Of a stretch of DNA of 64,000 nucleotides, positions 7,151 through 59,179 are shown in pieces. Origin of the DNA: Psammoneis japonica. Lineage: Eukaryota. The position numbers and the translations under genes were made by a program. Below the pieces are notes generated by a model. The model made no database searches and had not been told where the DNA came from. It saw only the letters and a program-made list of their open reading frames with translations. Position 1 is the first letter of the stretch; every line of letters begins with the position of its first letter. The stretch spans positions 62,001 to 126,000 of the forward strand of contig QPGO01000079.1 in the NCBI GenBank assembly GCA_008632985.1, in the 5' to 3' direction.

Positions 7151-7419
7151 CCGAATTTTCTTACCAATCCTGAAGTCCTCAAACAAGCACACTTACTAAA
7201 CTTTGCATCAAAGTTTATTATCGATGATAATGAACATGTTATTTATCAGTTCATTAAAACATACAAAAGGGGGTGCTCATGATGTAGTTAATGAAGTCGG
7301 TAAGGGGTGGGTTTTTCGTGCGTGTTTTTCATTTTTTGGCGTTCTCTCAACAGGAATCTTGACTTGCGGCTTTTTTATTTTCAATCTGTCCGTCCATGCG
7401 CATTTGAATGTCCAACTTC

Positions 7420-7640
7420 TCGGGTGCACCATGCTCGAAGAGCGAGTGTGAACGAAAGCAGAATGAATCACAAAAAGTGGAAAATTGGGAGGTTGGATTT
7501 TGTTCTGAGGTTTGAGTTTCTCCAAAGGAGCGGCCTTCAATGGCCTGAAGCTTTTGCGCTGCTTCCACAAACCAAAGGCCTTGCGGAGAATTGGACCCAA
7601 CAACAGATTGTTTCAACACGATCAACGCCAACACCTCGCT
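7420..7640 (-). repeat. LTR-like repeat, copy 1
   Basis: Aligns with 12226-12410 (direct) and 59180-59375 (inverted). Exact LTR ends are uncertain. Confidence 0.8.
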
Positions 7641-10600
7641 TGTGTGCAACCCCCTCTGGTTGACAATGCCTGCTGGCTGCACTTGCCTCCCCAGTTGCAC
7701 ATTGGGGTCACTTGCCAAATGGCACAATTTGACAGATGTCGACAATGTCGTCGCGTTTGAGACCTGTGCTGAGCCGCTGGTGTGCGATGTTGTCATTTCG
7801 CAGGGTCCAGCACAGGGCTGCTCCAATTTTTGAGAGTTTTTCCTGAGCAACATTTTCCTCTCACTCTGCAGGTGCAAGAAGTGTGCTGAGCATTTTCTCA
7901 AGCATTGTTTCTGTTTGTGGCATTTTGTTTTTGCCCCTGCACAAAGCTCCAGCCAGCGATGTGTTGGACATCAAATGTCATGTCTCAATTGAAGACCAGC
8001 TGCCCTGGTGCAGCTTGCACAGCAGTGTGACAAGTTGAATGCACTGCAAAGGCTGCTGCTGACAGCATTCCAGAAAATGGATCCTTTGTGTGGAGAGGAG
8101 CATTTTGCAGGTCAAGTGTGCACGGCATGTGTTGCCCAGTGCTTGGCGCACATGCTCTGTGATGGCATTGGCTGGCTTGTGAATTTTGCACAGTTGTGAG
8201 CCCACATTCAATGCTGCAATCATCTTGGGCCAAAGTTTTAAATTGATGTCCCCAGCGGGCTTGCTTCCACAATCATGAGTGGTCGACAAAGGCCAGCGAC
8301 ATCTGCTTGGCCATGTTCGTCATCCCACAAGTCCAGCAACAGTTGTGTGGGCCCCTTGTCATTTGGAATTTCCATGACCTCAAACCAGCCAGTTGCTGGA
8401 TCTGTCATTGTCAAACACCCCAGAACTGGGGTTTCTTCTTCCCTTTGCAATGCATTTTGTGCGGCCCAATGAGATCCACACATGATCTTTGCCGCGGCGC
8501 TCATTTTTGTTTGTGATTTCTTGTTTTTTTCTGGACAAACCTCCAACCAGCCATGTGTGCTGGACATTGAAAATCGTGTCTCTCTCAAAGACTGATTGTC
8601 CTGGTGTGGCTTGCACAGCAGTGTGGCGCGCAGAACGCACAGCAAAAGCCGCTGCTGACAGTGTGTTGAAAATGGATCATCTGCATCCATGGGTGCATTT
8701 TGCAAATTCAGTGCACGCAGCACATTTGCATGTGGATTTTGTGCAGCTGTGAGCTTGACTTCAATGCCGCAATCATCTTGGACCATGTCCTTGAACTCAT
8801 GATGTCCCATGAACTCACTTCCATGGTCACATGCAATTGAAAATGGTCAAGGACATCTGCTTGACCACATCCCATCTGATGGTCCAGCTGCAGTCATGGA
8901 TTCCTTGTTTGGGATTTTTGTGACTTCAGGCCATCTGGTTGCTGGATCAATCATTGTCAAACATTGCAGGGCTGAGGGTTTCTTCTTTCCCTTGTGACAC
9001 ATCTTGCATGGTCCAACAAGACTCGCACACAGCCATTCCCACAGCATTGCTTCTGTGCACTTTTTAAATTTCTGGCATGTCTCACATTTCAACACACACC
9101 TTGCATGTCTTCACACAAGCCAGACCATGTCAAGTCTTGTGAGATTGTCTCTTCTGTTTGATTTGTGCCAGGGTGCAGAAGATGTGTGTGGCACCAATCT
9201 GTCACTGTTTTTGCAGCATCTTTGGCGCGACAATTTTTTCCTTGTTTTGTGACATGTGGGCATTGTTTGATCTCCCTTGCCTTCACAAAAAGTCTTCACA
9301 TGACATGTCACATCCAACAAATGGAAGAGAATGTCTTTTTCCCCTTTTTTGTGTCAAGAACTTGGCATGTTGAGGGAAAGACATTGTCGTGGGATTTGGG
9401 TGTGACTTTCTCAGCAAATTCTTCAGTGCTGGGGTTTTCTGCAAGTTCAGTTTTTTTTTTTCACAGCAAGTCAGCTGATTGCACCTGTGATCTGTTGGCC
9501 AAACAGCACATTTTAGAGCTCCTTGAGAGTTTCTGCAATGGGCAGCAGCTCCTTTTCTGTTGTGGTGTGGTGTGTCTGTGCTCCATTCAGCTTTCAGCTT
9601 TTGCCAGCTTTGGGAGACAACAGGTTGTTTGTCCTGTGACATAACCACACCCAGTTGAGAATTGCTTGCATCTGTTCATGTCTCAAAGGGTTTGTTGAAG
9701 TTCGGGTGTGCCAGCGACATGTCTTCTGACACAACTTGCTTCACATTTTTGAAGGCTTTTGGTCAGTCTGGCTGGAGGAGCAAGTGTGTGAGATTGTCAA
9801 GGCCACATGTCTTGACAACAGTTGGTCATGCAAACAAAACATTGCAGCTCTTTGCAAGTTTCAGGAGCAGCAATCAATTGAATTGCCTCCACTTTCTTGG
9901 AGATTTGTCTGACACCTTTCTGCAAGAAGATGTGAAACCCAAGAGGACAGTCTGCCTTGAGTCTTGTGAAAAAGGATTTTTTGGCACTGACTTTGAACCA
10001 GCTTGTTTGAGCCACATGAATGTTGTTTTGAGCTTTTGAAGATGATCTTTAAAGTCACTTTTTGTCAGGCACAGCATGTTGTTGACTCACATCCTGACAA
10101 ATTCCAAGCCTGCCATGAGCTCACTCATGTGCTCTTGAAAAACATCTGGAGCTCCACAAATTCCCACAGGGAGCCTGCAGGAGTGCTTGCATTTGCCCCA
10201 CAGCATCGCAATGGTGCACAAACAACATGTGTGTTTTGCCAACTTGATGCAACAATGTCCCATGTTCAAATCAAGTGACATTGCACAAATGAAGCCCTTG
10301 AGCTTCTGCAGCATGTCTTGAACATTGGGTGGAGGATGCGGAGCACACATCACCTCGGCCCAATTCAGCTCACAAAAGTTGGTCAAAAATCAAACTCCAC
10401 TCTTTTTCTTGTGGGTTGAACAAAGGTTGGAGCTGCCCACTCTGAGTGGTTCATTTGTCTCTTGAGACTCCTGTCTTGCAGAGTCTTTTGGCTTCCCTTC
10501 AAGTGGTTGCTTCCAAGGCTTGTGGAACAGGAAATGGCTTTGCGTGGTGTGGGGTTGCACCTGATTTGATGCAAGATTGACCAGTTTTCCATCCCACATG

Positions 10601-12225
10601 CCTGAGGAAAAACCAACAAAATGATTTGCTTCTGCTCCTCTGGAGTGAGGTGAGTTGCTGCTGCAGTTGCATTGTTGAGGTCAGAAGTGTGACAGCCAGT
10701 GCCCTGTTGACCCTGTCATTGAGGCTCTTCATGGCGCGAGATTCCTCAATGTGATTGTCAATCAGCTTCAAGACCTTGGCATCAAAGAATGCATCTGCAC
10801 CCTTCATTGGTGCAGTTGCACCCTCCCATTTGATTTCTTCATCATTTGCAAAATCAAGTGTGATTCCAAGACTGCTCATCAAGTTGTGTTCCATGATCAC
10901 ATCATGTCACCATGAAGAAGAAAGAGTGCCACCCACATGTGCCGTCTTCTCAATCATTTCATGCTCATCCAATTTGGGCAATGAGAACTGTGTCTTGCAT
11001 TTGCTGTCAGTTGCAAAGAGCCCTCCCTTCTTTGGTTCTCAATTTCTGTGTGAATTTGCACAAAATTGTGATCAACAATGTTCTGTCATCAAGAAGAACA
11101 CACGGAGGCTTGTTTTTCTCTTTCTCCAAGGAAGTGTTCACACAAGCAATGACTGTTGGACTGGCACAAATTGTTTTGTCCTTTTTTCTGGGCTTCCCAA
11201 TGTCCAGTGACATGTGTGACTCTTCAACAGGCACCAGCCATTCCTTGGATTTGCTGCATGTCATCGGCTCTCTTCACTGAGAGCATTGGCACTGCAATCT
11301 TTGCCCTTGTGCTTTTTGTCACTCTTCAATGAACTTGCCTTGAGAGTTTTGTTGATTGCCTGAGCAGCCATGGCATTCTTCAACTCTTTCTTGTGAGAGG
11401 CACCTCTGTTGTTGTGATGCAACCACATGCAATTACCACTTGAATGTTGCCATTTTGGGTTTTGTTCAGAACTCTCATGGCGTTCCTCAGCTGGTCTTTC
11501 AATGATCCAGGATTCACCCACATTGTGGGTGGTCTTTTCGTCACAACAATTGCACCAGCACTTGTTGGACTCAGAATGTTTGGCACCTGGCAGGTGGCCA
11601 TTTTTGGGGCCACGTTGAAACCCACTTTTGGTTTTAGAATCAGGGTCATGCTTGCTGTTGGCATCAGCCTTGACATGAATTTGGTCAAACATGTCTTCTG
11701 CAACCTCCAGATGTTCCAAAAACTCAACCAGCAACTTGTTGAAGGTGTGGTCCAAAATCTCAAAACCTTGTGCAGTTGACTGATGCTGCCACATGCAAGG
11801 TGCAACGTTGTGGACAACATCCCATCTTCTTCCAGATGTTGGTTGGCTTTAAAGGGAGGGTGGAGCTTAAAGTCTTCAGTGACCTCCAGAGCTCATGTGG
11901 TGATTTCTTGAATCTTCATCAACTCCAGTTTCTCTTGAGATCACAGTGCAGATGTTGTCTCTGGCTCTGAAGTGCATTCTTCAGGAAGACATGGTTTGAG
12001 AGACAATCCAGGCATTTTTCAAAGGCTCCTTTGGCTTCTTCATCATCTGTGTTTGTCGCCTCATTCTCAAAAACTTGGAGAGTGCTCCCCTGCAACAACA
12101 TGTGCATGAGCCAGAACCCATCAGCTTGCTTCTGAATGCTCTGTCCAGCCAAGACTTGACAACACATCTTGAGGAATTTGGCGCACTTGGGGGCTCCTTG
12201 TTTGTTGCAGCACGTGGCACTGCAA

Positions 12226-12410
12226 GAAAAGTGGAAAATTGTGAGATCAGATTTTGTTCTGAGGTTTGGAGTTTCTTCAAAGGCACTCTCAATGGCCTGA
12301 AGCTTTTGCACTGCTTCTGCAAACTGAAAGCCTTGCAGGGAATTAGACCATGACAACAGATTGTCTGGATGTGATCAACATTGACATCTTGTGTGTCATC
12401 ATCATTGTCC
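12226..12410 (-). repeat. LTR-like repeat, copy 2 (truncated, joined to gag)
   Basis: Shares AAAAGTGGAAAATTG..GATTTTGTTCTGAGGTTT..TCAATGGCCTGAAGCTTTTGC..ACAACAGATTGT with 7473-7633. Confidence 0.8.
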
Positions 12411-15400
12411 AATCACATTTGCAATGTTAGACATCCGATCACATCTGTGTGATTGATCTGTCCTTTGCAAGCACCCATGAGTGATTGTGGTGTGATTGGC
12501 ATGTGCAACAATGTGCAACTGTGAACATGTGCAATTCCTTCCACTTGAAAATGTGCACGTTGCACTCTTGAGCCCATGCTCAGAATCTGCTTGAGCCATG
12601 ACTGCCTGTGCAGGGGGCAATCTCATCTCCACTGCTGCTTTGATCCAACAAGGCTGTCCACACTGATGGCAAACCCTGGCATGTGCTCAGACAACCTGCG
12701 CCAGATGGCGGAAGTGTTCTTTTTGCTGAGCAGCTGGACAAACTTCAGACCAAAAGAATGAACATGAGAGGACCCAATCTTGTCATGTTTTTTGCCACAA
12801 TTGATGCAACCAGACCAGCTGGTCAAGGGGGGGGGGGGCTGAGTCAAGGAGGGTGTTGGAGTCAAGCAGGCCAAGGAACATCCATGTGCATGACAAGAAG
12901 AGCACACCTGTCTTTTGCTTGCTTGTTGGAAACATCCCTGATGCTGTGCTGATCACTCAGTCATGGACCAAGCAAACCCAGCAAGGTTAAAATTTGAGTG
13001 AACAGAGGTGAGAAGCAAGAAGGCTGCAGAGTTGCACAAGACATGTGCTGAGAAGTGCACAGATCAAGAAGGCTTTTCAGATGTCAGGCCCCCCTGCCAT
13101 GGCATGTTCTTTCTGATGACTTGGAAACTCTGGATTGTGTGTCAGGTTGCCCAAAAATTGCACACTTGTTGATCCCCAGCAAAATCTTGCAGCTGTTGTT
13201 TTTTTTAATCTTCTTTTTCATCACACTGTGGGTGTCAACCCAAAACAAAATGGCCACAACACCTCAGCAACTGAGCCATGGCCCCTTTGGCAACAGCCAC
13301 ATCCCCCCAGCAGACCACCCACAGCTCGTTTCAGGTCCTCAGGGTTGCTGGCTCTCATTGCAAAATCATGACAAGGGTGTGCTCACATTTGGACCACATT
13401 GACAAAAAGCACTTCCAAGTCAACCAAAAAATGAGAAGATGCAAAAAAGAAAACTGTGAGATTGTTTCCCTGTTGCATGAAAAAATCAAAAATCTTCCTG
13501 TTTTGTCAAGCCAAAGGCTTTTTGTTGCGGCTGTTTGTGAGAACAAAAACTGGTTGGGCACTCTTGAATGTCTGCAGAGTGTGCTGAGCAAATCAGTTGC
13601 AGCATGCTCCAAGCACAGGTGAGCCAACTTGATTGCAAAATTGCCACTTTTTCTGCTGGTGACCATTGATTTGTTCATCACCTGATGTGATGTCCCACCA
13701 AGTCCCACCCTGGGCTGGAGTTCATCAAAAACAAGGATGAAATGCACAACCTGGGTTGTTCCCACTCAGCAGATCAGCTTGCTTCTGCTCTCTTGACATT
13801 CCTTGCCTTGCCCACCACCCTTGGATGAATTGTCAATGTGCCATTGGTGTGTCTCATGATGCCAAAGCACAGTGTGCTGTCATCCATCAGCCACCAAAAC
13901 AGCGCAATTTTGCAGCAAGCAGCCCATCTGCCAGCCAGAGCAGCTGTGGTCATCTTCTTGAGAAAGCTGACAATGTGCTGCTTCAGCAGTGTGCCTGTGC
14001 TGTCAGTGGCTGTGCTGTCACTCACTGGACTCCCTGCAGCTGGAGCCATGATGTCTCTGGTGAGACAGAGTTTTGCCACAAGCTCAAGCACAAGGGGGGA
14101 AGTGCAAAAGACCTTGTTTGCACACCTCTTCCTTCAAAACCCAGTCTTTGCCATGCTGTTGTCATGCACTGGGAGACAGCCACAAAGGAAGAAAAAATGT
14201 GCACAGTCAAAAACAAAGCTGGAGCAAAAGAAGAAAAGCAATCAAGTGTTTTCTTTGCAGGGCAAGAAGAAAGAGCTGCTTCTCAGCATCACAGCACTGA
14301 AGAAGCTCAGCAAAGATCAAGTTTTGAAGATGCAGGAGCTGGCCAACCAGGCACTGAAAGAAAAAGAGAACAAACCATCAGAAAATTGGGGTGCCTTTTC
14401 AGAAAAAAATGGCTGCAAAGGAAAATGAGGAATTCTCAGGCATCTGCAACATGTTTCTGCACTTGACAAGAAGAGAAATGAACAGCAATTGCAATTTTCA
14501 CATTGTTTGTGGTTGCAGTTTCCTCCAGTGCACAATTTTCACAAATGTTGGATGTGCTTTGTTCTGTCGTTTGATTTGTGAACAATTTTGTTGTGGTTGC
14601 CTTGGCATCAAGAGTGCAATTTTCATTTTGCAAACTTTGATCTTGTCAAGAACTTGCTCATTTGGTTTTGGAAGGACTTTTCCATTTGATCACCCAGCAC
14701 AGCCTGCATCACAGCCAGAGCTTTTTTGTGCATCTCGCGCAAAAAAGCTCATTGCCACACAAACCCATTTGCTCCAACAACTTCTGAACATGACAACAGG
14801 TTGGGGGGGTGCACGGTGACAGGTCGGTGCATGGCGGGTGCACTCTGTCATTGGCAACACAGGGAATGATGCAGGTGAGTTTGTCCCTTGTGTGCTTTTG
14901 TGTCTTGCTCAGCAGCACACAAGCAAAGCTCACAGGGCTTGGTCAAGCAACTGACAGACCTGGTGCTTGTGGACAGCCCTGCAGGTGGGTTGAGCACTGT
15001 GTTCACTCTGTTGCCAAGTTGGTCAACAGATGACTCTGAGAGTGTGTGGTGCCATTGCTGGTCAATCTTTTCCCATTGGGCAACCTGGTTGTTCAACTGT
15101 GGTGATTGGAAAACCAGACCCACCAGTCTGCTTGAGATTGGATGTTGCTGAGAGTGTTTTTCATGGTTGACAGCTTCAAAAGAGTCAGCCAGCACTCCCA
15201 CCGGTTGTGTGTTGCAGCTGTTGGAGGTGGCGCTGTGCTGTCATCAGACAGAATGACCCAGCTCAAGCACTTTTCAGGTGGCACTGTCACACTGCTGATC
15301 AACTGAAGCTCATCTCTGGCTGTTGCCACAATGACTTCCTCCAGCCTTTGGAACAATGTGCAGAGCAACTGCCAGCTCAAGTGCCAAACTGTTGACCCTC

Positions 15401-16726
15401 CCAACTGCAGTGCTTTCATGCCACCAATTGTTCCATCTTGTTGCTTTGTCTTGGCTGGAACTCTTGAGTTGGTTGGTGGTGGAGACAGCTGCGCTCTGCA
15501 GTTTGCAAGTTCAAGTGCGCTGCTGCTGTTGGGAACAAGGTGACATGGGCCCACAACCCCACAAGATGAACCTTGCAATGCTCAGAAACAGTTCTCAAAC
15601 TGTTTCCTCTGGAGCCCGCCAGAGACCACCAAGGTTGTCAGCTTGCAGTTGTGAGGTTGGTTGCCACCACTGTGAGATCTTTTTGCACTTGGGAGCTTCA
15701 AAGTCCAAGTCTTCTGCTGTTGGGCACAACATGACACATGGCTGCAGAACTGCAAGATCAGCCTTGCAGTGCACACTGACAGCTCTCAAAATCTTGCCTG
15801 GGGTCTTCCAAAGATTGTCAGGGTGGTTGGTGCTGTGACAGCATTTTTTGAATTTTGGACTTGGGAAAGTCAAGTGTCTTGCCCTGGGCCTGCCAAACAC
15901 CACCAGCACCCTCCTTGGCTCAGATCTGTCAGCTTGGTTGGTGCCAAAATGGCGTGCTTTTGGTGCAACATTTGGGAACTGAAATTTGTTGCTGTTGAGA
16001 ATACAAGGTGACATGAGGCCACAACACCACAAGATCAATCTTGCAACTCCCAACAGCAGCCTCAAAGTGCTGCCTGTGGCCCACCCCTCATGCTGCCAGT
16101 GTCCTCAGCTTGCAACTGTTGGGTTGGTTGGTGCCATTCAGTGCACTGTGCTGTCCAGAAATGCAATTTTCTGAACAACAGAGGAGACATCCATTCCGAC
16201 AAAGCGCCTGCACCAGTGGAGTGAAGAACCCTCAGCTGATGGATGTCGCTCTCCAGCATTGCCACTCCTCAATTCAGAAAATGGCAATGCCGTGCGTTTG
16301 AAAGACGCTAAATGCAATGATCTCGAACGTTTTGAACATGCAAATCACCTTGTCATCTTCTGCCCTGAAAATGCTGTAACCGCGTTTGATGCAGCTCTAG
16401 TCGCACTGTCTCGCTTTCGCACCACTTGATGTCTAATCTCAGCACTGTCGATGCTGTTGGCGACATCGCTGTGGAAGCAAAAAAGGATGACCGCAATCTA
16501 TTGACGAGAAAACTGGTTTTTCAACAAGCCGTTGAGCACTCAAATGGACAAAAAACAATTCGCCTATCATTAATGGTATGAATTACACTAAATAACAGTA
16601 AATAATGTCACATAAAGATCACCAATCACCACTGTTCATCTTTCTGGAGTAGCAACAATCCAGAGATCATGTACAGTGCGATGTTTGCAAACAAAACTCT
16701 GAGGCAGTAGCTGTTCTCCCTTTCAT

Positions 16727-18821: not shown

Positions 18822-21800
18822 TCATTCGGATTGATTATTCTCCGCATTGGTTGAATTACTCTCTTGGTTTTCTTTGTCTCCCTCCGATGCATCGCTGTTC
18901 CTGGCATCATTGTGATCGTGGTGTTCCAGCTCCATTCCTGTCGACGACAACACACCATCGTTGTTTGCATTTGCTAGTAATGGTGCCTGCGCGAGCGAAA
19001 ACATTCTGGGAGTCCGGTGCAGCTCGCTCTCGCCCGCAACTTCATCCACGACCGGTATGGTAGGTGCAGGCGCCAATGGTTGTTGCGGCTCGTCGTCGTC
19101 ATCATCATCGTCAAAATAGGATTCTTCCGTCTCTGTTTGACGAAATTTTCGTTGGTCTTCCATTGCCTTTTCGCTCAAGTGATGCTGCGGCCGGGCGCTA
19201 GAAGAAAAGTACCGAGAAGTGCCTCCACCGTCAGATTCACCGGCTTGTTCCTTGCTCTTGGCAGCATTCAGGCTCTCCTCATAGCTTTGACGGAGCACAG
19301 TTAACGTATTCACATATGGAGTGGAAACGTCTTCCAAACTCGGTATCTGCGCGGATGTGTTGGACTTAGGGCTTGTAAGAGTAGTTGACGGGATCAAGTG
19401 CTTCGAAACAATATACTCAATCAAAGACTTGATATTTTGGTCGTGTATGAAGTCACACATCTGCAAGAATAATGGATTGCAATTGTGAGAACGGCTCAGT
19501 TTCAGTCATTACGGCAATGAATCGATGTTAGGAACTGCCGACACTCACCTCGATAATGGCAGAAGAAACAAGATTGTCTCCTACTGGGTTCGAGCGGAAC
19601 GCTTCAAAGACGGGGGCGAACAGGTTGTGTTGAATAATGTGTCGATGATAAAACTCGTCTTTTACAGAGAGAATTGCCCGTAAGAAACTAGAACAGCAAG
19701 GCATGGCGGCGTAAGAACTCTGCAAAGAACTAAAAGCTTTCTGCGCGACACAAACATCTTACCGTATCGCCGCGAGCTTGAGGCACCGGTCGCCAGATGG
19801 TGCAGTGGGTGTTGCGGGTGGTGCCAGTACTTTCAGGACGCTCCCCAGCACACGCGATCGCAAAAGAAATAACTTCATGCGGTACAGATGCGCTCGCACA
19901 CAAAAGTTTAACAATTCCACTGCAAAAGAACTCCGAATCGAGCATGGTGACACTGTGTGCAGAAACACCATTGTGTGCTTTTCGTCGATGGTCGCAGTGC
20001 TGCTATTCATAAAGGCTTTCAGTATCTTGGACATGAGTGGAGAAGACGACGGCGACGCAATGACTGACGCTGGAACAACCCGTAGTGGATGGAGAATCGT
20101 GAATTGAAACGGAGCTACCAGCCACGAAACGTAGTGCTCGTAAAACATGGCCAGGAACTGATTCTGGTCAGCAATATGACTTTCCCCGTGATGGTGGTGC
20201 CCGTCATGTTCCATGGAGTCAAGGTGCGGACTTCCCGGTGCGCTTGATCCCTCAATGCTGTTTTCCTCCCCAAGACCCACTCCCATGGGGCCATGCTCTC
20301 CCAGCAGATCAGTGTCAAGGATAAATCGCATAATTTCCGTCGACTGTAGCAACAAACCAGCATCCGTTTCTGTTGCCAGCACAAAGAGCAATGCTAACAA
20401 CAAGTCGTTGGTTGCACAGTAAAAGATAATATGGCGTTTCTCGTTTGGAGCCGGTTTCGCGGGGCCCTCGATACGATTTTCCTTTTGTTGCGAGTCCAAA
20501 CAATGCCGGCGAACGTGACAAGGATCGTGCATGGCTATGGTCGAGATAATTTCCAAGGCTGCTCCCTTTTCAGTAGTGTCCACCGTGGGGTCGGACAATA
20601 CCGTGCCGAGTAAGCCCAAGAGATACACAGCGTTTCCATTCTCGATAGAACTCTTTGCGTCGCTGATATTAGCTTTTGACACTGCCGAGGGCTGGGATGC
20701 ACTTGCTTCCTCTTTGTTTTCCTGGGGCTCTTGCGATGATTCGCTTCCTTTGGATTCTTGCTTATCGTCACCCTCCACTGACGTTTCTCCTGGAGAATCT
20801 TTTGCTTCGCTGCCGTTCAAGTCCACGGCTGTGCTGACAATGTCGGCAAAGAACACGTCCCTTTCATTCTGCTGCAGAGATATCCGCACCATGTTGAACA
20901 ATTCACGCAGAAATGATAAGCAGCCCCGTCGGCGCATCTTTCGCGATGCCAGTGATTCATCCTGAGGTACCAAGTGTTGCTTCCAGGATGCATTCGTTGA
21001 TTCCTTTTCTGGTTGGTTTGGTATCGGAGACCGAGGCCGTACTACCGGCGGTGGCACCGGCGTCCCGTCCTCGGTGGCTCTTGTTTCCAATTCTTCCCAT
21101 TCTAATTCCATAATGGCTGTTATTTCTTTGCCCAGCAATCGAATCACCTGTACCAAATAGCTATCGCCAATTTCTGTATTCTCCACGTTTTCTTTGGACT
21201 GTTGTTCCTCTTCCGACACATTCATTGTACCGCTTGTCACAGCCTTGACAAGATCGGCATGCGTAAATGTCTGTAATGATGTTAACGTCGAAAGACTCCC
21301 TTCATCCATGGTGGGTCTCAGCAAGGTATCACGCAAATATGTTACTCGAAAAGACCGATGAATCGTCGCCACCAATTGCTCGTCTTGCATTGGGACGACG
21401 GTTCGGAATTTCGCCCGCTCTCGTAAAAACCAGCGATGGTTGGCCTTGTCTCTCAAATCTGGATCGTATTCCAGAGTCGAACAAACGTTTTCAAAAATGA
21501 CCTGATCCGCTACAATTAACTCAATAATGGACGGGTCATTCAGTAAAAGAATCGTCTTGATGCAGGCGGCCAACGTTGCCAAGGCACCATAATCTCCCTT
21601 GGATTCGGCAGAAGGAAACAAGGCCAATAAAGCTTTAAGGTATGAACACTCTTGTTGTGATATATACATGGCCAAGGCATCCCTCAATTGCAACTGTGCA
21701 GCGGCAATGGTATCGGCAATTTCTTCCAAATGACCCAGCGTGGGAGGGTTTGGAAGCTTGGGAGCCGCGTGAGCAGCAGCAGCATCGTCATGGGGTGATT

Positions 21801-22794
21801 GTCCCGAATTGTCGCTATTGTAGGTTGCAGCCGCGGCTGCCGCCATGCTTACTGCGACAGCGTCACTGCCTTGTTCACGATACTGTTCGTCCGACGATGC
21901 ACCGTGAGATGATGATTCCTGTACATTTCCCCACATGTCGTGCGGCTGTTGTTGATCGTGCTGTTGCTGAGATGAAAGATCACTCCCTGTCGTAGTCCCA
22001 GGACCCATGTCAGAAGTTTCACTCTGGTTGTACTCTCCTTGTTGCTGCGCAGAAGCAGCCTTTTTCGAATCATGTACATGATGCAACAGTATGCCTCGGA
22101 CACGAAACCACTCGGTCGCTCTGGATTGAATATGAGTAATTTGACGCCAAATATCCAAACACCCCGCATTGTCTTGAAACGACAAGGCCAAATCGACGCC
22201 ATTTTTGGAAGAATCAAAATGAGGTTCACACCACGTAATAATGTTGTCGCCCTGACGTTGATAGGCTTCGCGCAATAAAATACGTGTTCTCAACAGAACG
22301 GTCTTTTCTTCTTCGGATTGCATAACTAGAGTCGGTTCTCCCAATTCTTGATACAAGACCGCGTCTTGATCAAGTGAAGGAGCCTGACCCGACTTTTTGT
22401 AGGCGCACACGATGCGACCCGTCCCACAGTCATCCCACGAGCCATCCGCATTGAGGCGATACAGCTTGACTCTCCATCCCTCGGGTTGCTGCATGCTTTC
22501 GCTCGTATTTTTCCTCTTGACAGCCGGCGCATCGTCATCCTCGTCCGAAGAAGAACTGGACGACCCAGAAAAGGTGGAAGCCACGGCGGTATTGGTTGTT
22601 GTTGTTGCCTTGAGTTTGCGCTTTCGCTTGTTACCCAACTGCATGTGTATTCTCGGCGTGCCCGTGTGAGTGTTTGCTGATGCTGATGATGTATGGCTGC
22701 TGGGAGGCGTCGAAATGTTTGCTGAGGACTGCTGTTCCGTTGTATCTATAGCCTGAGTAGATCCACCCGGTGAGTCCGTCAAAGGCGAAGTCAT
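18822..22794 (-). CDS. PPP4R3: Protein phosphatase 4 regulatory subunit 3 (SMEK/Psy2 family), 3 exons
   Basis: EVH1-like [46 protein letters not shown], and SMK-1 region [17 protein letters not shown]. Exons 22794-19763, 19687-19549 and 19460-18822 with GT-AG introns. Confidence 0.95.
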
Positions 22795-24593
22795 GGTGAT
22801 GCAATGCGGCGGCTTTAGTGTGTGTTGTTCGTTTTCTCAGAAATGCCAAATCACATGTCCCGGTGTTTTTCCGTTTTCAACAGAGACAAATTGTGACGTT
22901 CTATTTCCCTCTTTGTGTCTCATGCCATAGTTCATACAACGTATAGGTATTCCAGCTTTCTCTATTGCTCCAATGATGCCGTATGCTTTGCTCTGTGTTG
23001 TGTTGGAAGTAATCAATCGCAGGCACTGCACTTCGCACTTTGCGTTGTTCTTTTGCTTTTTTTCGTGTCGCTCGGCCGCAGCGGTCGGCGCTCGCGTTGT
23101 TGACTCTTTTTGGTACCGGTTACCACCTTATGGTTCCACGTAGAAGTTGTACCGGGCTTACTTACCCTGATTATCATAGGTATGTGGCTGGAATGATTTT
23201 TAGAAATTTAGAGTAGATTTCTACGCAATTAGTGCAACACGTCACCAAGTTGAAGTTCATTTTGTTGGAGGGAAAACAAAAAGCACGAGAATTATCACGT
23301 GCCCGGTCTCTCGACGATGATGCTCACAGCTTCTTGAAAATCCATGGCTTTTAGCACTACGACCTACACCCACCTTGCCAACCCACCTGTGAAGCTCCCT
23401 GAGGGCCGAAGTGCAAAAACCCATCATGTCTGATGTCCGAAAATCGTTCGCATCACAACACATGCATCGGCTGTTCTTGGATTCTCGCGTTCAGAATCAA
23501 TGGATGCCAGCAGACCTGTGGACAGAGCACTGCAATGCAAAATTCAACATCAATGATGAGAGAGTCGAAAACAGGGGCAGACAATTGAAGAAGCCGTGTG
23601 GCAGCATCAACGGGGTTTCGAGTTTGACGGAAGAGAACAACGTTGTTGCTGGCGGGTGAATTTGTGCGAAACGGAATGCCAACATGGCAGTCAAGCCCAA
23701 CCCCTTTCCCGACTTTACAAATCACTTGAAGCAACTCAAGGACGAAAACAAAGCCCGTGCATCCCGGTTCTGTGCTGACCTGCAAGACGTTTTAAGGATT
23801 GAAAACTCCCGAACCTCCGTTTGGACACGAGAATCTCAATCACTTTGTCGGATCCAAGTCTTTGGCAAAAAACATTGACATTTGTCATGATCTTGCAAAC
23901 CCAAGTTGTTCTTTGCCACCGAGCATCAGCAAGGGCATCGTGGGAGCACTTCCAATGGGTGCAATTTAGGATGAGACGATTTTGAGGATTGCAGCTTTTT
24001 GACAATCAACTGACATCATGCTTTTGAATTGCCAATGACGATGGCTCGTTGTTGTGCTGCCAGAGGCTCATCTACACTGCCGTCTGCTCGCTTTGAGAAC
24101 GAATCGGCTGCTTGCGCCTTCTCTGCCAACAGACGCATGTTTGGTTTGAGCAGTGGGCAGACAGGAACGGGTGCAAGTTTCATCTCTGAATGCACACCCC
24201 AAACAACACCACTGAACCAATCGAAGGAGTGCAAGCACTGCTGTCACAGCTCTAGAACAGTTTGTGCCCCACCTGCCCACGTGGTGTCGGCAGAAGAGAG
24301 CAAAGCCAAAGGTGGCATCAAGCGACGACGGCATTAGAGGCACCAGCAACTGGCAACAATTGTTCCACAATTCAAAATGCAGCAGTGCTTCATTGCACAC
24401 TTTTCCTGTGGAGATGCTTGCCTCTTGTGCAGACATCTCGAAAGGATCTGCACCACTTCAGCATCGCGCACATCACGTGGGAGTGCGAGTGGTCTTGACT
24501 CCAAAATGTCATTCTGAACTGGCGTGGGAATGCACAGAATGTCTTTGGGCTTGTGCAAAAGGTGAGTGTCGAAACCTTTTCCTGCCACAGAAA

Positions 24594-25097
24594 ATGGGAA
24601 AAGAGAATTTCAAGAAATCGGCTTCAGATGCGGGGGGTGACACACCTCTGCACAATGCTGCCAACACCAGGATGGATGCTGTTGCAAAGATTTTGTTGGA
24701 GGAAGGCACTGATTTGGAAGCAGTTGACATGAGGGGATGGACCCCGCTGCATTTCGCATGCATCGGCAACCGCGCAAATGATGTGTTGTGCGTGCCCATT
24801 GAACGAGGTGCAAATTTGAATGCAAGAGACAATGACGGGAGAATTCCGATTGATCTTGCAATCACAAAAAAGGGCCTCGACCCCATGATGTTGCTCTTGA
24901 TGGAAGCTCATGCAAGACAGCTGCTGCCCATTGACAATGCCCATCCTGATTCATGGGCACAAGCGCTTGCATTGGTTGGACACAAGAAAACCCAGATCAG
25001 GCTGAGTTTGCTGTTTTCTCTGCTTCAAGCGAAACCCGACTTGTTGGAGCACTCACAATGCGAGCACAATGCAAGGAAGTGCAAGAGGTCCGATTGA
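24594..25097 (+). pseudogene. Ankyrin-repeat protein remnant inside domain B
   Basis: GDTPLHNAA..VAKILLEEGTDLEAVD..GWTPLHFAC..ERGANLNARDNDGRIPIDLA; contains no Tyr codons. Confidence 0.8.
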
Positions 25098-25949
25098 TTG
25101 GTTCTTTCCTTCCTGTGGTGCATTGTTCTTTCAAATGCCGAAAGACACTGGGTTCTTCTTCAGTGGCATTGGTGTGTTTCTCTGTAAGAGCGTTAGATTT
25201 CAAAGCAGAACATTGTGTGTCAGAGCACAGTGCTCCATGCCAGACTCAAGTTCTGTTGTAAATTGGTGTTGTGTTCACTGCCACTTTCATTCCTCAAAGG
25301 GAATCGGACTGCCGGTGCGGCATGAAGCCGAGCACCACCTCATCCATGACAAACCGTGCAACTTCATGAAAAAGGAGCAGCACAGCCATCAGAATCTAAA
25401 CAAATCATTGCGGCCACGATCGAAATCTTTTTGTTGCGCTGCTTCCAGGAGAGATCTGAAAATGTTGAGAACTCGAGTCTAGTGCTGTCCCCTGTTTTCA
25501 TGTGATGCTGCTTGAAAAGTGTGCCAAAACTTCCTTGTGCCCGTCTCTTTCGCAGAGGCCAAGCCAACTGCTGCGCGCATTTGTCACAAGAACGAAAACA
25601 ACAATGGCCAGTCGCCAGGGCATGAACAAATGTCCGCTGCAAAGTTGGTGTCTAGCTCAACCTGCAAGTTGCAAAAGAGCAAAGGAAATGCTGTTGCACC
25701 CACTGTGTGAAAAGCGTGAGCTGGAAGATTGTTGAAACAACAATTGCCAGTTGTGCTGCACCAGTGCTGCAGCGAGAAAAGGCTGCAAAATTGTCGTGCA
25801 GTTTCAATCCACTGCACAAAACCTGACGCGTGAAGCCGCGAACTGGAAGATTGTTGAGCAGGGGTCTGGAAGTGTGGGTTGTTGGCCCACTTTGTCAGTT
25901 TTGCCAGCCAGCTGCACAGCAGCACTTTAAGCTGGGTTTGTGTTTTTTC

Positions 25950-28420
25950 AACTGTTTCTCTTTGATTGGCAAAATGAGGAAGTCTGGGATTGAGCTGCAG
26001 AGCATCTTGATTGCCCACTTTTGACACCTGAACCAGCCTTGCAATTTTCACTTTTGGCAGCTTGTTCATTTTTTAGCTCTTCAGGGCACAGCACACCAGC
26101 AGCTGACTTTGCCAAAGCACTGTCTCAGAAGTGCTTTTCCAACTTCTTTGTTCTTTGCCAGCAAGTGTCTTCTTTCTGTTTGATTTTCTTGCAGAGCTGG
26201 CCTTCTTCCAGCACTTCAAAGTCACCCAAAAAATGAAGTCTGGAATGCAAAGCCTCTGTGCTGCCACCCCAGCCCCATTGCTCAGCTCCTCTCAGACAGC
26301 AAAGCTGCCAGCAGCAGTGTTCACACCCCAGAAATTGTGGGTGCTGTGTTCTGAGCACCATGGTGACTGATGAAACATGCAGAGGGAGGGAGAAAGAGAG
26401 AAAATGTCTTGCCAGGGCCCACCTTCTTCACAGCATGTGGTGTCAAAGCCTTCAGGCTTCAGGTGCCATTGCCATCAAAGCCACAAGTGCAAAGTGCCTT
26501 GTGACAGCCAGAGAGCTGCAACTTTGGCAACATCTTTTTTTTCCCAAATCTTGGCACCACATTTTCCTCTTTGATGCCACCACAGAATGCTTTTCAGCAC
26601 AGCAAGTGTTGAGAATGCTTTGTGCCAATGCACTTGCCCACAACCACTGCTAAAACAACCAGAGAATTTCTGGCCAATTGGAAAAATGAGGAACTTTTGG
26701 ATTGTTCTGCAGAGCATCTTGATTGCCTGCTTTTGATGCCTGAAATGGCCTCACAATTTTCACTTTTGGAAGTCAGTTTGTTTGTCCCTCTTGGCTTTTC
26801 AAGGCACAATGCACACCAGCAGCTGACTTGTTTGCCAAAGTGCCACGTCAGAAATGCTCTTTCTCAACATTGTTCTTTGCCCGCAAATGTCTTTCTTTTC
26901 CACTTTCTTGTGAAGTTCTTCCAGCCCTTCAAAGTTGCCCAGCAGTGCCCAAAGACAAACCAGTGGCTGCGAATGATCACAAATTGGTGTGCCCAGGATC
27001 TGGCAGCATCTTTGCTTTGACAGCAAGCACCTGCTTAGAGCAGCACCAATGCAAGCTCAGCAACATCATGGTTTCTTCTTGGCCCTGGAAAGCACATCAT
27101 CAACAACCAGCGGGAATTGTTGTTTTTGTGCGCTGGCGCTGTTGCTGCTGTGCATGACTTTCTGACATCTCCAGTCACAGAGTTGCTGTGTTGCCTGAAG
27201 CAGCCTCATAATTTTCACTCTTGGAAGTCAGTTTGTTCATCCCTCTTGGCTTTTCAAGGCACAACGCACTGGCAGCCAACTTGTTTGCTAAAGTGCCATC
27301 TCAGAAATGCTCTTTCAACATTGTTCTTTGCTTGCAAATGTCTTTCTTTTTGACTTTCTTGTGGAGTTCTTCAAGCCCTTCAAAGTTGCCCAGCAGCGCC
27401 CAAAGACAACAAGCCAGTGGCAGTCAATGACCACAAGTTGGTGTGCCCAGGATCTGGCAGCATCTTTGCTTTGACAGCAACACCTGCTTGGAGCAGCACC
27501 AGCGCAAGCTCAGCAACATCATGGTTTCTTCTTGGCCCTGGAAAGCACATCAACAGCCACCAGGACTTGTTGTTTTCATGCACCAGCATTGTTCCTGCCA
27601 TGCATGAGGGGTGAGAACATCTGTGCTTCTGACATGATCCAGTCACAGAATTGCTGTGTTGCCTGGAACAACTGGAGGCAAACAGATGAAGTCAATGAGA
27701 AAGTGCCTTGTGACAGCCAGAGAGCTGCAACTTTGACAACATGACATTTTTTTTTTGCCCAAATCTTGGCACCACATTTTCCTCTTTGATGCTGCCACAA
27801 AATGATTTTCAGCAAAGTGAGCATCAAGAATGCTTTGTGCTGACACACTTGGCCACAAGTGCTGCTCAAACAACCTGAGAATTTCTGGCTAATTGGCAAA
27901 ATGAGGAACTCTTGGATTGTGCCACAGAGCATCTTGATTGCCCACTTTTGATGCCTGAAACAGCCTCACAATTTTCCCTGGTGGAAATCAGTTTGTTTGT
28001 CACTCTTGGCTTTTCAAGGCACAGTGCACCAGCAGCTGACTTGTTTGCTAAAGTGCCATCTCAGAAATGCTCTTCCAACATTGTTCTTTGCTCAAGAATG
28101 CATTTTTTTTTAATTTCTTGTGAAGTTCTTCCAGCCCTTCAAAGTCATCCAGCAGGGCTGAAAGACAAACCAGTGGCTGCCAAGGACTGCAAAATGGTGT
28201 GCCCAGAACCTGGCTCCTTTTTTGACAGCAAGCACCTGCCTGGAATGCTGACACCACAAGCTCACCAAGACAGGCCCAGGAAAGCACCTCAACAGGACTT
28301 TTGTTGTTTCTTTTGTGCCAGTGTTGTTGCCATGGGGTGGAGAGAGCATCTGTGTTTCTGACCCAGCCACAGAATTGCTGCATTGCTTGGAACAATTGGG
28401 GTTGCAAGCAGATGAATGAA
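25950..28420. repeat. Degenerate tandem array, four related units
   Basis: The core ..CAATTTTCACTTTTGG..TTTTCAAGGCACA..CAGAAATGCT..CTTCCAGCCCTTCAAAGT recurs in units starting near 25970, 26680, 27200 and 27895. The block AAAGTGCCTTGTGACAGCCAGAGAGCTGCAACTTTG occurs at 26491 and 27700. Confidence 0.85.
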
Positions 28421-31198
28421 TGGAGCCCACATTGGTTGCTGATGGTGATCTGCTGTCTTTTCTGGTTTTTTGTTTTGGCAGAAGTGCCTCCTGGCTTCTT
28501 GTTTGCACAAGCCCCACTTGGTGGCAAGACTTCCCTTGAGATCTTTTCTCAGCCATGCTTGAAGGTCCAATCTCAGCTTCCTCTGCGGCTCTGTCAAATG
28601 ACATTTGTTCCTTTGCTTTGCAGACCACCAACAATTGGTGAAAAAAGGTCAACAACAAGTCCACTGGCTGTTTCATCTGTGCACTTTCCACTGAATGCAT
28701 GCTGACTTTCTTGCTCTGCTGTGGCAGGTGGCGCAATCTCCACACTGCTGTTCAGCGCCAAAAACATGTGGAGGAACAACAGCATGGGCATTGAGAGATC
28801 TGCTGGTTGCCAACCTGCCATCTGTGGAAAGTTGGCTCTGCACATGCACAACTCTGCATGTGGTGTCCTGCAAAAATGTGGGAAGGGTGCTTGGCGACAC
28901 TCTCTCTCCTCCTGATCTGCTTTGCATCCCAAACAAGGAGCAGAGATCAAACCCCCAGAAAAGTCCCAGAAGACAGAAACAGGTGCTGGGCACACATGCC
29001 AAACAGAACAATGAACCACACAGCTTCCAACTGTCTGTGCAAGATTTGCAACCACAGAGTGCTCAAAGTGACAACTTGTTCTCAGCCCAGCTGCCAGCCA
29101 GCCTTGGGCTGCAATGAACAACCAAGAGTGTCAGCATGTTTCTAGAGCACATGCTGCTCCTCTTTGTTGGTGTGTGGCAGCTGATCTTTTGGGTCATTGT
29201 GTTCTGGCATGTCATTGACAAAAAGTGCCAGTGCCAAGCTCTCATGTTGAGAAACCCCGCCCCCCCCCAGCTCTGCCATGATGAAGTGCAGGTGCTGCAA
29301 CACACTTGTTTTTCTCTCTCCAATTTTGAACAACCACAAAACTCAGCTGAAGTGAAGGCAGCTGCTTGCAAGAGCTGATTCTTGCACACAGATGTCTGGC
29401 GACAGTTCCCATCTGGTGGCAGCTGGTGGCTGCCTCCAATGTCTGTGTCCAGAAAATGATCAGCGTGGCTCTAACTCTGTGTGTTTTCTGCCCCCTCACA
29501 TCATCAAATTGGTGGCTGACAGAGTTGCCCTGTTTAACCTTTTGCCATTGGCATCAACATGAGCTGGGCTTCAGCGGACAAGCCCCCAGCCAGTTGCTGC
29601 TGGGGCTCCCCACAAATCTCCCAAAAGATTGGGCCCCCATTGGCGGCCATGCACAGCACATCATGTCTCATCCAACTGCTCCATGTGCATCCTGCCCACA
29701 CAGCCAGGGGTGTGGCTGACAGAGTTGTTTTTTGCTTTTTTCTTTGGTTGCAGGCACCAACAAAGTCCACAACCTGTGATGGCAGATGAAGAACCCAGTT
29801 GTCCTTTTGGGGGGCTCACACAAATCTGTGGCCTCTTTTGAAAATTGTCCTTCACTGTGCACACAAATGAGAAAGGAGACTTGCTCAGAGTCCGCTGATG
29901 TTGTCATCTGTGCCCAGTGCACAGCTCCTTTGGCACCCTCTGAGGCAACCTCCTGGTGTGCCATGGCTCTGTGCACGACACCCAGTGTTTTTGAGCTTTT
30001 TTTGCTGCTTCCCTTTCTTTCTCTTTTTGCTTCTCCTCTTGTTCTTTTTAAAGGTGTGCCATGGCAAATTTGACACTCCTTTCCTTTTTCCAATGCTGCA
30101 TCATCAGCAGAGGTCTCTGTGCCGCAGCACAATGCCCTTGGCCCAGAGAGCTTGGCTGAGGGTTGAACCTCCTCTCTTCTTTGTGCATCACTTGCTGCTG
30201 GTGCTTTGCTCAAATGACGCTGCTCTGTTCAGGAAACTTCTTTGACCCCTCTCTTCTCTGGAGAGCACCAGGTGGCTGCTGTTCTGGGCTGGTGCTCCTC
30301 AATGGCAAGCAGCCTCTTTTGCACCATGTTGGTTGCAAAAGCTGTTGGAGGTGAAGCAAGAGGGTGCAGCGCATCGTTGCCGAAATTGCGGAAGGGCCCG
30401 CACATCATTGCCGCCATTTTGCACCTTGAAAGAAGATCTTCCCACCGCAGAACAAAAACAACATTGTCACAACAACGAACGCGGTGGATCCTCGTTCGAA
30501 AGACAGACAATGGAACGTTCCGATGAATGAGAATTCAGGCGCAGTAATTCATTTGTTCACACGTCAGTGATTGCTGATCTCACACGTTTGTCAGTGACCA
30601 ACGACATTTCTATGGGAGAGTCATTCTTACGTGGTGATTGGAAAGGTCGTACGGAAGGACTATCATTGCCCAATGGACAATTAGTCATCCTAGCAATCCG
30701 ACTTTTTTGCTGCTACTTAACCGGGTCATCTCAACTGGATCTTAGGTGTCCAAATGCATTATGTGCCATCTTTATTGTTTGACATTCTTGGTTTCTGTTG
30801 ACAAAACCAAATAATTACGTTCGTGGAAGTCTTGATAAATCAAAGAGAGCCGTTGACCACTGATTCTTCCATAGTGACGGAACACCACATAATACTTATA
30901 GATGTGACAGTGCAGTATTGCGAATTGTGAAAGATTTTGCTCTTTTGGCGCCAAAAAAATTGTCCACCGGGGGGCAGATTTATGAAATTTTGGCCGACCG
31001 ATCACCAACAAACGCACCCAGTGGTTGGTGGAAGCTACTGTAGTGCTCCGTCCAACAACCTGCTCCCAGTCATAGCTTGCAGGGACTATTTCGTCGCACT
31101 CGAGAAAATAGGAAGCACTTTAAGCCATTCATATCTCGGTTGTTCGTGTTCTACCGTTGGAAGGAACTTCGTTTGAAAACATCGACTCTGACAACGAC

Positions 31199-38358: not shown

Positions 38359-39079
38359 GGTGGTGTGTTTGCTTGGTTGTCTTACTGCCTCCAGAGGGCT
38401 GGTTGCTTGGTGAACAATGGGATGACAAACAAACAACAACAACTCTTTCGTTATGATTGTTTGTGGCTTGTCCGTTTGCTACTTTCAATGCGCCGTGTAC
38501 CGGTATACGGTAGAGTGAGTGTACCGGTACACCTGTCGTACCGATACGGTAGATTGCTTTCCGACCGTTCCCATCTACCGGAGGTATGTAAATAGTGGCG
38601 AAGTTATTTTTGCTGTTGAAAAATCTCGACACAAAAAATACTTATCGAAAATCGGCTTTCGTCAGTCACTAAAACACACCCAGTTGCAGCGACTGACGAA
38701 AGCCTTTTTTCGATATCTTCAGTTGTAAGAGCTGTAGAGCAAGAGCAAAGTCTAGAAACAAGGTGTCCCATAAGTAATTTATATAGTATACAATTCTGTA
38801 TGAGATTTCGGAACTCCGGGTTAAATGTCAAATTTATGATACGACTAATGTTTGTATATAAATATAAAAATCAATTAGAAAAAGCGAATATAACCGTTAT
38901 TTTTTCTTAAATAAATAATGCCAAATTTTCACCGACAAACATTCGCTTTCCGCACACTCCGACCGATACAACATGCGTTTGACCTTGTTCAGCTCGATCC
39001 TGAAAAAAAGTTCGCTGCTGTTCACATGCCTCCGGCACTAACCACATGATGTACGGTAGAACTTTCAAATTAATTTCGC

Positions 39080-41700: not shown

Positions 41701-42395
41701 ATGCCAACACAACAGACACCATGATCGACCGCAGGAGACGATCCATCCACCTTTCAAGCTGTAACAAAACGCAACAATGATCTTTAGTGAGTAAGAAAAC
41801 GATAGTATAAAATGAGAAAAACAGAAAGAACTTGCCGCCGCAGCGTTGTCGACCATTCAAGTGTTACGTGTCAAACGTCCCGCGCAGTTGAGTGTTGAGT
41901 CACGAGGAGTCGAGGCACGCAACAGTTTGTTTATCATGCCGTGTGTCGCAACCGAAGCCCCCCGGAAACCAAACCAATGTATCAACCTCTTTATAACACA
42001 ACGGTAGAAAAAGATCCCCCATGAAAGATACGTCGACCCAACGATGTTTGCCATGTTCTGAATGTCGAGACACATCATAAGTGCAACATGCCGTTTTGAA
42101 AGTTTGAGTGCAATCGACTTATTCGACTCACCCATAGCTGCGTTTTTTGCTGTCGGCATGGGCATCACGTCTTGCGTTTGTGACACAACGGAGTTCCAAT
42201 TGCAATCCTTCCAGCTGCTTAGAAAGGCTCATGAAGGGCTCTAGAGTTATCACTGGGTAGGTTTGGTTTGCAGAGACTCAAAGCATCAGTATCGGTTTCA
42301 GTTGCAGAAAACGATGAACGCAGAAAGTGACGATTTTTCAACTGGTGACGCCGCAGCACTTACTCTCAGTCGCTAAAACATATACAGTACATCCC

Positions 42396-58900: not shown

Positions 58901-59179
58901 GCAGTTGAATCTTGCCACCCAGCCATCATGCAACAGCCCAAAATGTTGGTGGTGCCAGACATCTCACTCACAAGCAAATGAGAACTTTCAATCATGTGGG
59001 GTGGATGCAAATCACAAGTCAGCATGTGTGTTGCCCCGCCAAAAGGAGAACAAGGAAATGTGCCCATGTGCTGTGTGTTGTGCACGTGTGTGTGCTGCCT
59101 CCCTGTTTGTGGATGCATGTGAAAGCAAGGTCAATCACACACAATTGATCGGATGTCTAAAATTGCACACACAATCAAC

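Follow-up and report, generated by a model that had tools for sequence, protein, structure and literature searches.

Near-complete conversion of TpA to TpG and CpA in a degraded gypsy-like retrotransposon and other bounded blocks of diatom DNA

Introduction

The 64,000-nucleotide stretch of Psammoneis japonica DNA analysed here (contig QPGO01000079.1, positions 62,001 to 126,000; hereafter the window) raises the question of how the remains of a gypsy-like retrotransposon came to carry Cys or His at nearly every position where its intact relatives carry a conserved Tyr. A sequence-only reading of positions 7950–10390 had proposed that conserved Pol motifs record the direction of mutation, each Tyr or Val change being a single TA→TG or TA→CA step with both strands hit, and that TA was present in the ancestor and was removed after insertion. 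We show that resident DNA of the window underwent a dinucleotide- and context-specific, transition-only change of TA to TG or CA on both strands, which is near-complete within bounded blocks. The observation made in that reading is thus confirmed and its interpretation supported; a parallel erasure of CpG, an effect of the flanking base and the full, multi-kilobase extent of the affected blocks go beyond it.

Results

A dead gypsy-like element on the minus strand

Searches by tblastn with intact proteins placed the Pol domains colinearly on the minus strand, with protease at 11026–10466, reverse transcriptase (RT) at 10410–9607, RNase H at 9614–9435 and integrase at 9253–8497; the reference protein P0128 contains the domains PF00078, PF17917/17919, PF17921 and PF00665. 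We assign the element in 7.5–12.4 kb to the Ty3/gypsy (Metaviridae) long terminal repeat (LTR) retrotransposons, as a degraded member with the following parts.

7473–7611, minus strand: LTR-like direct repeat, left, at the element's 3' end; 82% identity over 141 columns to 12227–12364
7814–8500, minus strand: integrase core, tandem second copy (tblastn), holding STCHT
8497–9253, minus strand: degraded integrase, copy 1 (tblastn), with zinc-finger WCH and core DCGI
9435–9614, minus strand: degraded RNase H region (tblastn), frame-shifted relative to RT, holding HHTTTEKELLPIAETL
9607–10410, minus strand: degraded reverse transcriptase (tblastn), holding DLNMGHC and WGKCKH
10466–11026, minus strand: degraded aspartic protease region of gypsy Pol (tblastn from intact Pol P0128, P0129 and P0160)
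12227–12364, minus strand: LTR-like direct repeat, right, at the element's 5' end; pairs with 7473–7611

This one pair is the only candidate found for the terminal repeats, and the duplicated integrase cores (7908–8482 and 8504–9031) are 65–72% identical. The element is a dead copy, with several frameshifts and TGA stops in Pol. Its catalytic YxDD box now reads TGA-GTC-AAC-AAC, a state incapable of supporting retrotransposition, in keeping with TA having been present in the ancestor. A phmmer search with the RT piece, one TGA being read through, returned 2704 relatives at E ≤ 1e-3. No Pfam family passed its cut-off when the element's own open reading frame (ORF) fragments were scanned directly, illustrating how TA erasure hides transposons from domain scans.

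Conserved tyrosine codons are lost by single transitions at TA

For comparison with intact Pol, the best 150 RT relatives were sorted by Tyr content into 128 intact proteins (at least 2.5%), 13 hypermutated ones (less than 1%) and nine in between, which were excluded. The 128, together with 119 full-length Pol relatives of P0128, gave 247 intact references that were aligned to the window by tblastn. A codon was called conserved when at least 20 references covered it with at least 70% agreement, which yielded 518 codons, 309 of them kept in the window. Not one of the 21 conserved Tyr codons is kept, compared with 309 of the 497 other conserved codons (Fisher p = 2.8e-9), and an initial pass with the 128 references only had likewise given 0 of 12. 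The 21 Tyr positions now read TGC (6), TGT (6), CAC (5), CAT (2), TGA (1) and AAA (1), that is, 12 Cys and seven His; Phe, Ser, Asn and Asp are absent. Thus 19 of the 21 are one-step changes to Cys or His, as expected from the proposed TA→TG and TA→CA direction, and neither a random mix of residues in the element nor Cys or His at these sites in the intact relatives was found. The excess of Cys over His within the window, which might have reflected transcription or strand, is not significant (12 versus 7, p = 0.36).

Other codons containing TA were also lost: at conserved Ile, Val and Leu positions no ATA, GTA, CTA or TTA is left, and the products of TA loss found there are ATG (4) and ACA (5) for Ile, TCA (5) and CCA (1) for Leu, and GCA (1) for Val. 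Nine of the 37 conserved Arg codons are kept (AGA 4, AGG 3, CGT 2), seven of these being AGR, and 23 others lie a single step away from CGN (Gln 8, His 6, Cys 4, TGA 4, Trp 1). Where the conserved residue is Ile, Met, Thr, Asn or Lys, whose codons start with A, a T precedes 19 of the 22 A→G changes at codon position 1 and just one of the 83 retained A (p = 8e-17). This dependence on a preceding T marks the change as a process acting on DNA dinucleotides and not selection on residues.

All seven motif strings cited in the sequence-only reading were found in the minus-strand translation where it had placed them. For DLNMGHC, 227 of 240 and 217 of 241 references carry Tyr at the positions where the window has CAT and TGT; for WGKCKH, 207 of 241 and 213 of 244 do so where it has TGC and CAC. 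Of 124 references covering HHTTTEKELLPIAETL, 98 have Arg where the window has CAC, 123 have Tyr where it again has CAC and 123 have Val where it has GCA, and the Tyr of WCH (118 of 118) and of DCGI (122 of 122) is TGC in the window. At these five motifs, 85–100% of the intact relatives carry Tyr; the case is weaker for PHP, where the references have Tyr 98 and Phe 89 times among 195, and for STCHT, with Tyr in 71 of 122. The presence of Tyr, Val and Arg at the altered sites of intact relatives bears out the claim that TA was present in the ancestor.

TA is nearly absent from four discrete blocks

Dinucleotide counts revealed four discrete, nearly TA-free blocks in the window, with borders that the positions of TA and CG resolve to tens of bases, while the neighbouring host genes have normal TA. 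The blocks, none of which is assigned a strand, are listed below.

7302–16300: block 1, TA-free; CpG-poor core from near 7800 to near 16190
23294–30545: block 2, TA-poor; the left 2.3 kb (to about 25650) has normal CpG
39072–41762: block 3, TA-poor; normal CpG resumes from about 41159
45861–62790: block 4, 17 kb, TA- and CpG-free; LTR-like pair at 55602–55921 and 62419–62750

The span 7301–16300 of block 1 holds 16 TA and 87 CG. Composition was compared between the clearest block DNA and genic DNA, with observed/expected ratios (o/e) in brackets.

Block DNA, 29.7 kb: TA 59 (o/e 0.03), CG 211 (0.13), TG 3419 (1.84), CA 3399 (1.85)
Genic DNA, 25.8 kb: TA 1091 (o/e 0.62), CG 1476 (1.01), TG 1940 (1.18), CA 1778 (1.13)

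Were TA as frequent in the 29.7 kb of blocks as in genic DNA, about 1256 would be present, so the shortage is far beyond chance. G+C is 0.477 in both samples, and the four pyrimidine-purine steps together have a frequency of 0.239 in blocks and 0.244 in genic DNA, a nearly unchanged total as predicted if TA and CG convert into TG and CA. The balance of TG (3419) and CA (3399) in the blocks indicates that both strands were hit, as had been proposed and as the 12 Cys and seven His at Tyr sites also illustrate.

Survival of TA depends on the flanking bases

Residual block TA in each tetranucleotide context was expressed relative to genic DNA as TA survival.

TTAA: 0.59
CTAA/TTAG: 0.23
CTAG: 0.06
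GTAA: 0.037
ATAA: 0.034
CTAC: 0.005
ATAT, GTAC, ATAC, ATAG: 0

By arithmetic, an additive per-strand model fits these values, those of CTAG and CTAC included, with the base 3' of the changed A ranked C ~ T >> G > A. The values fit a putative per-strand target preference of 5'-T-A-Y-3' (Y, pyrimidine) far above TAG, with TAG above TAA, from which the best survival of TTAA would follow. Tyr sites became 8 Cys and 1 His after a pyrimidine and 4 Cys and 6 His after a purine (R), a split (Fisher p = 0.057) in the direction that the TAY model predicts, as opposed to its mirror model with a purine two bases upstream. Tetranucleotide gains per kb were +19.3 for YTGY versus +8.7 for YCAY, and +14.4 for RCAR versus +1.2 for RTGR.

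TA loss and CpG loss overlap but are separable

TA-poor zones with normal CpG occur at 7302–7800, 23294–25650 and 41159–41762, so that TA loss extends 100–2300 bp beyond the CpG-poor cores, and the two losses differ in completeness, with a residual o/e of 0.13 for CG and 0.03 for TA. Features of decay at 5-methylcytosine in CpG are evident both in the CG o/e of 0.13 and in the 23 of 37 conserved Arg codons that are one-step CGN products. Diatom transposons carry DNMT5a-dependent CpG methylation (PMC9998398, in excerpt), and the conversion of CG to TG or CA in the cores may represent ordinary decay of such methylated CpG. The transposon cores here, with CpG o/e of about 0.1 and a gain of TG and CA, resemble the outcome of that decay as it applies to methylated transposons (PMC9998398, in excerpt), which accounts for the CpG half alone and is incapable of removing TA.

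Residual CG survived to different degrees by context in the blocks (GCGC 0.36, CCGC/GCGG 0.19, TCGA/ACGA/CCGA 0.05–0.07). Five metagenomic gypsy loci from other hosts (L045, L074, L008, L024 and L033) have CpG o/e of 0.10–0.23 and normal TA (0.62–0.91), and look like cases of ordinary methylation decay without the TA process.

Duplicated copies differ chiefly by TG:CA pairs

Five paralogous pairs were aligned: two LTR-like pairs, the duplicated integrase cores and two repeats internal to block 2. In every pair, adjacent double mismatches were most often TG:CA, with the following counts.

Element LTR-like pair (7473–7611 / 12227–12364): 4
Second LTR-like pair (55602–55921 / 62419–62750): 7
Two internal repeats of block 2: 12 and 7
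Integrase duplication: 19

Each such mismatch can be read as a single ancestral TA or CG that became TG in one copy and CA in the other. Because the copies differ mainly by TG-versus-CA pairs, much of the change is later than duplication, and the proposal that TA was removed after insertion gains support from the LTR-like pair and the internal duplicates alike.

Relatives in public protein sets and metagenomes

Among the best 150 RT relatives, 13 are Tyr-free, Cys/His-rich fragments that are present in public protein sets. In their 89 cells at conserved Tyr columns, Tyr accounts for 3%, and Cys (47) exceeds His (21; p = 0.002), with the choice of Cys or His varying from copy to copy; these relatives keep 56% of conserved Arg cells. 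RT proteins with 0–1% Tyr and raised Cys/His include P0141, P0151, P0176, P0179, P0184, P0188, P0189, P0204, P0208, P0227, P0229, P0239, P0261 and P0391. Such low-Tyr proteins, from public sets that are largely metagenomic, look like hypermutated copies called as genes, and Pol with low Tyr and high Cys/His would provide a simple protein-level marker of TA erasure.

The best 80 related metagenome loci, which serve as a control and not as evidence on distribution, included no TA-free locus (TA o/e 0.35–1.03). Since TA is kept in these loci, the TA-free state is not a property of this retrotransposon clade.

An independent sequencing run agrees with the window

An independent DNA run was examined as contigs, which cannot reveal rare variants. 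These contain 85% of the words sampled from block 1, and long pieces show 1–7 differences each from the window; the agreement indicates that the TA-free pattern is not an assembly artefact. Summed contig depth, which is not a copy number, was 61.7 over most unique genes (62–81 over 16.3–23.0 kb) and 69–1032 over TA-poor zones, hinting that the latter are repeat families. A segment of block 1 at 13671–15004 is fully TA- and CpG-free and has near single-copy depth (69–104 versus 61.7), and the footprint may thus take in DNA that lacks repeat copies at 90% likeness, or has lost the copies it once had.

The window and the run differ at 137 sites, 40 of which were itemised, 20 of these in 7302–16300. 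For TA and CG, excess was judged against the block's overall difference rate of about 0.2% of all sites. The run reads TG at two of the 13 residual TA of block 1 (9643 and 11435; Poisson p = 0.0016) and CA at the border TA at 7301. Five of the itemised block 1 differences are CG→TG or CA (excess p = 5e-5), two go the other way, CG in the run standing against TG or CA in the window, and two more are TG/CA doublets. At 23723 and 23774, high-depth contigs have TA where the window has CA and TG. Together these differences are a hint that the process is still running.

Discussion

Targeted adenine deamination as a probable explanation

The explanation that we consider best overall, with a probability of about 0.6, is that gypsy and repeat DNA underwent TA erasure after insertion by targeted adenine deamination, together with decay of methylated CpG. 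Adenine in DNA would be enzymatically deaminated to hypoxanthine, which is read as G, by a deaminase that may serve as a genome defence like repeat-induced point mutation (RIP), targeted to chromatin that is silenced, repeated or foreign. We infer a deaminase from the purity of the transitions and from a precedent in the chlorarachniophyte alga Bigelowiella natans. The T-A-Y preference recalls U-A-C, the anticodon-loop substrate of TadA.

The precedent is the single report of TpA-specific hypermutation of resident DNA that we found, a 2026 preprint (Mettrop et al., bioRxiv 10.64898/2026.01.13.699255), according to whose main text 230 of 231 mutations in two viral inserts of mutation-accumulation lines were A>G or T>C, all at TpA. 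The preprint proposes an ADAT2-like deaminase and describes RT and DDE domains as enriched among TpA-poor coding sequences. The process inferred here may be of the same kind: as the preprint's main text describes it, change in B. natans is only TpA>TpG/CpA, affects both strands in discrete regions of mobile or foreign origin, and leaves long-term TpA depletion with a gain of CpA and TpG. The two cases differ in host and target, B. natans being a rhizarian with integrated DNA of nucleocytoplasmic large DNA viruses (NCLDV) and virophages, and the present case a diatom (stramenopile) with blocks of LTR retrotransposon and repeat DNA. They also differ in degree, with Rho of 0.45 reported for the NCLDV region compared with a near-complete TA o/e of 0.03 here, and in approach, as the rate was measured there in mutation-accumulation lines while the signature was read here from the DNA sequence. 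CpG is also erased here, and the preference for a 3' pyrimidine is added here by comparison with the preprint's main text, in which the words 'CpG', 'context', 'flanking', 'diatom' and 'retrotransposon' do not occur. A search of full-text literature, which leaves most subscription journals outside its coverage, found no report of a TpA-erasure signature in diatoms. TA erasure in the window is a new case of a kind described very recently, from another supergroup lineage; it is saturated here, and context and CpG detail are added.

RIP in ascomycetes likewise introduces dinucleotide-specific transitions on both strands of repeated DNA in place, kills transposons and has sharp borders with some spill into the flanks. 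In contrast, it changes C to T mostly at CpA, makes TpA and lowers G+C, whereas here TpA is destroyed (o/e 0.03), CpA and TpG are made (about 1.85) and G+C is steady at 0.477. Fungal RIP was rejected as the process at this locus, the values of TpA and G+C being the opposite of a CpA-to-TpA excess and an AT-rich product. GC-biased gene conversion was also rejected, as the change is limited to TA and other A/T sites are spared.

Other explanations

Could one RIP-like machine, either a dual A/C deaminase or a deaminase together with a DNMT4/RID-like enzyme, have removed both CpG and TpA? The cores have lost both dinucleotides, each with TG/CA as the product, and amphioxus ADAT2 is said to edit A and C in DNA, as cited in the main text of the B. 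natans preprint (bioRxiv 10.64898/2026.01.13.699255), while RID-related DNMT4 genes occur in some diatoms (PMC9998398, in excerpt). We nevertheless consider a shared machine unlikely: the two footprints are unlike, with several TA-poor zones of normal CpG, the residual o/e is 0.13 for CG versus 0.03 for TA, Tyr-free public relatives keep 56% of Arg compared with 3% of Tyr, and L045, L074 and L008 are CpG-poor in other hosts without TA loss.

We give a somewhat smaller chance to a pathway without a deaminase, in which a T or A modification marks TpA (5-hydroxymethyluracil of the TET/JBP type, or N6-methyladenine) and mispairing or repair then yields T>C or A>G. The palindromic TA could bear a symmetric mark, like CpG, an R-T-A motif fits the sequence data as well as T-A-Y, and 5-hydroxymethyluracil in dinoflagellates is enriched at TpA. 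Lesions processed by glycosylases are, however, expected to yield mixed outcomes, and the transitions here are near-pure, with 19 of 21 Tyr codons one step from Cys or His and no Phe, Ser, Asn or Asp.

RNA hyperediting, in which ADAR-like A-to-I changes in retrotransposon transcripts would be fixed by reverse transcription before insertion, is very improbable. ADARs are, to our knowledge, known from animals only, and they favour a 3' G, whereas here TAG is disfavoured relative to TAY. ADAR and APOBEC editing in animals resembles the present case in producing deaminase-type clusters of transitions that inactivate retroelements, and the A-to-G change with a 5' T neighbour recalls the ADAR preference for a 5' U given in the B. 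natans preprint's main text (bioRxiv 10.64898/2026.01.13.699255). It acts, in contrast, on RNA or reverse-transcription cDNA and leaves a one-strand signature, while here both strands of resident DNA changed (3419 TG versus 3399 CA) and a 3' G is disfavoured. Moreover, the LTR-like pair and the in-place duplicates diverged by TG:CA pairs after duplication, and non-coding DNA is affected, up to 100–2300 bp beyond the CpG-poor cores. ADAR-type hyperediting was accordingly rejected, the symmetric outcome in which TAG outlasts TAY being unlike one-strand A>G with a 3' G preference. Least probable of all, and refuted by the evidence, is that the elements arrived TA- and CpG-free through foreign origin or selection against UpA/CpG, UpA and CpG both being suppressed in RNA viruses and some mobile elements (PMC3829696, in excerpt), or that the pattern is an assembly or sequencing artefact: a working RT is impossible without the YxDD Tyr and 20 other conserved Tyr, the reading frames are broken, paralogues differ by TG:CA pairs, related metagenomic elements elsewhere have normal TA, and the independent run contains 85% of sampled block 1 words with 1–7 differences per long piece.

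Several points weigh against the deamination reading. The evidence is of sequence, in which deamination of A at TAY looks just like a lesion centred on the thymine of RTA in the opposite strand. The split of Cys and His by preceding base is only suggestive at p = 0.057, and the RTGR and RCAR gains fall out of balance with the RTAR and RCGR losses, an imperfection that arises because genic DNA only stands in for the ancestors; with neighbouring genes substituting for the true ancestral composition, survival ratios and tetranucleotide gains are rough. The TG:CA counts reach, by arithmetic, about 45–73% of what full independent resolution after duplication would give, and part of the TA and CG loss may be older than the duplications. 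Finally, where the window and the run disagree, the cause could be divergence between strains or faulty assembly and not new mutation.

Implications

The finding of the signature at saturation in diatom retrotransposons would mean that the process is not confined to one alga, and TpA hypermutation may be widespread in this ecologically dominant group. The per-strand TAY preference is a property that any candidate enzyme must reproduce. More speculatively, and with rather less than even odds, diatoms might possess a dedicated, chromatin-targeted DNA adenine deaminase, homologous to the Bigelowiella system, that erases every 5'-TAY-3' adenine in transposons and silenced DNA alongside CpG methylation. 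If the diatom system were homologous to that of Bigelowiella, such an 'inverse RIP' would be an old genome defence across the SAR (stramenopile, alveolate and rhizarian) supergroup, and an enzyme, if one is responsible, would be a naturally occurring DNA adenine deaminase and of potential interest to base editing.

Neighbouring genes and other features of the window

The remaining features are as follows.

19759–22836, minus strand: PP4R3 ORF, 1025 amino acids
24216–25094, plus strand: ankyrin-repeat ORF (Pfam Ank_2, E = 8e-19), inside the TA-poor, CpG-normal zone of block 2
31124–36613, plus strand: NB-ARC/TPR ORF, 1829 amino acids in a single ORF, with NB-ARC, an APAF1-type helical domain and many TPR repeats
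59883–60182, plus strand: second gypsy protease remnant (tblastn from P0129, P0160, P0168, P0169 and P0245)

The window contains intron-poor eukaryotic genes and is diatom nuclear DNA. For PP4R3, every named best relative comes from a diatom (Cylindrotheca, Nitzschia, Seminavis, Fistulifera, Mayamaea and a 'Thalass...' transcriptome entry) at 42–53% identity, with no close sequenced relative among these named matches. A diatom host had also been presumed in the sequence-only reading, and the result agrees with it.

In blocks 2–4, the identified content consists of the ankyrin ORF (Pfam) and the protease remnant (tblastn). A Pfam scan of 173 ORFs of at least 85 amino acids in the blocks other than the gypsy element matched only the ankyrin ORF. 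That ORF encodes 0.0% Tyr, 4.1% Cys and 4.8% His, and its zone, where summed contig depth is about 6–16 times that of unique genes, may represent a young repeated family caught early in the TA-removing process. The 173 ORFs occur in every frame in about 33 kb of blocks; long spurious ORFs abound there because TAA and TAG are gone and TGA is nearly the sole stop codon, and such ORFs in TA-free DNA could mislead gene callers. The 1829-amino-acid ORF, which encodes an NLR-like STAND protein in a diatom, sits between two hypermutated blocks.

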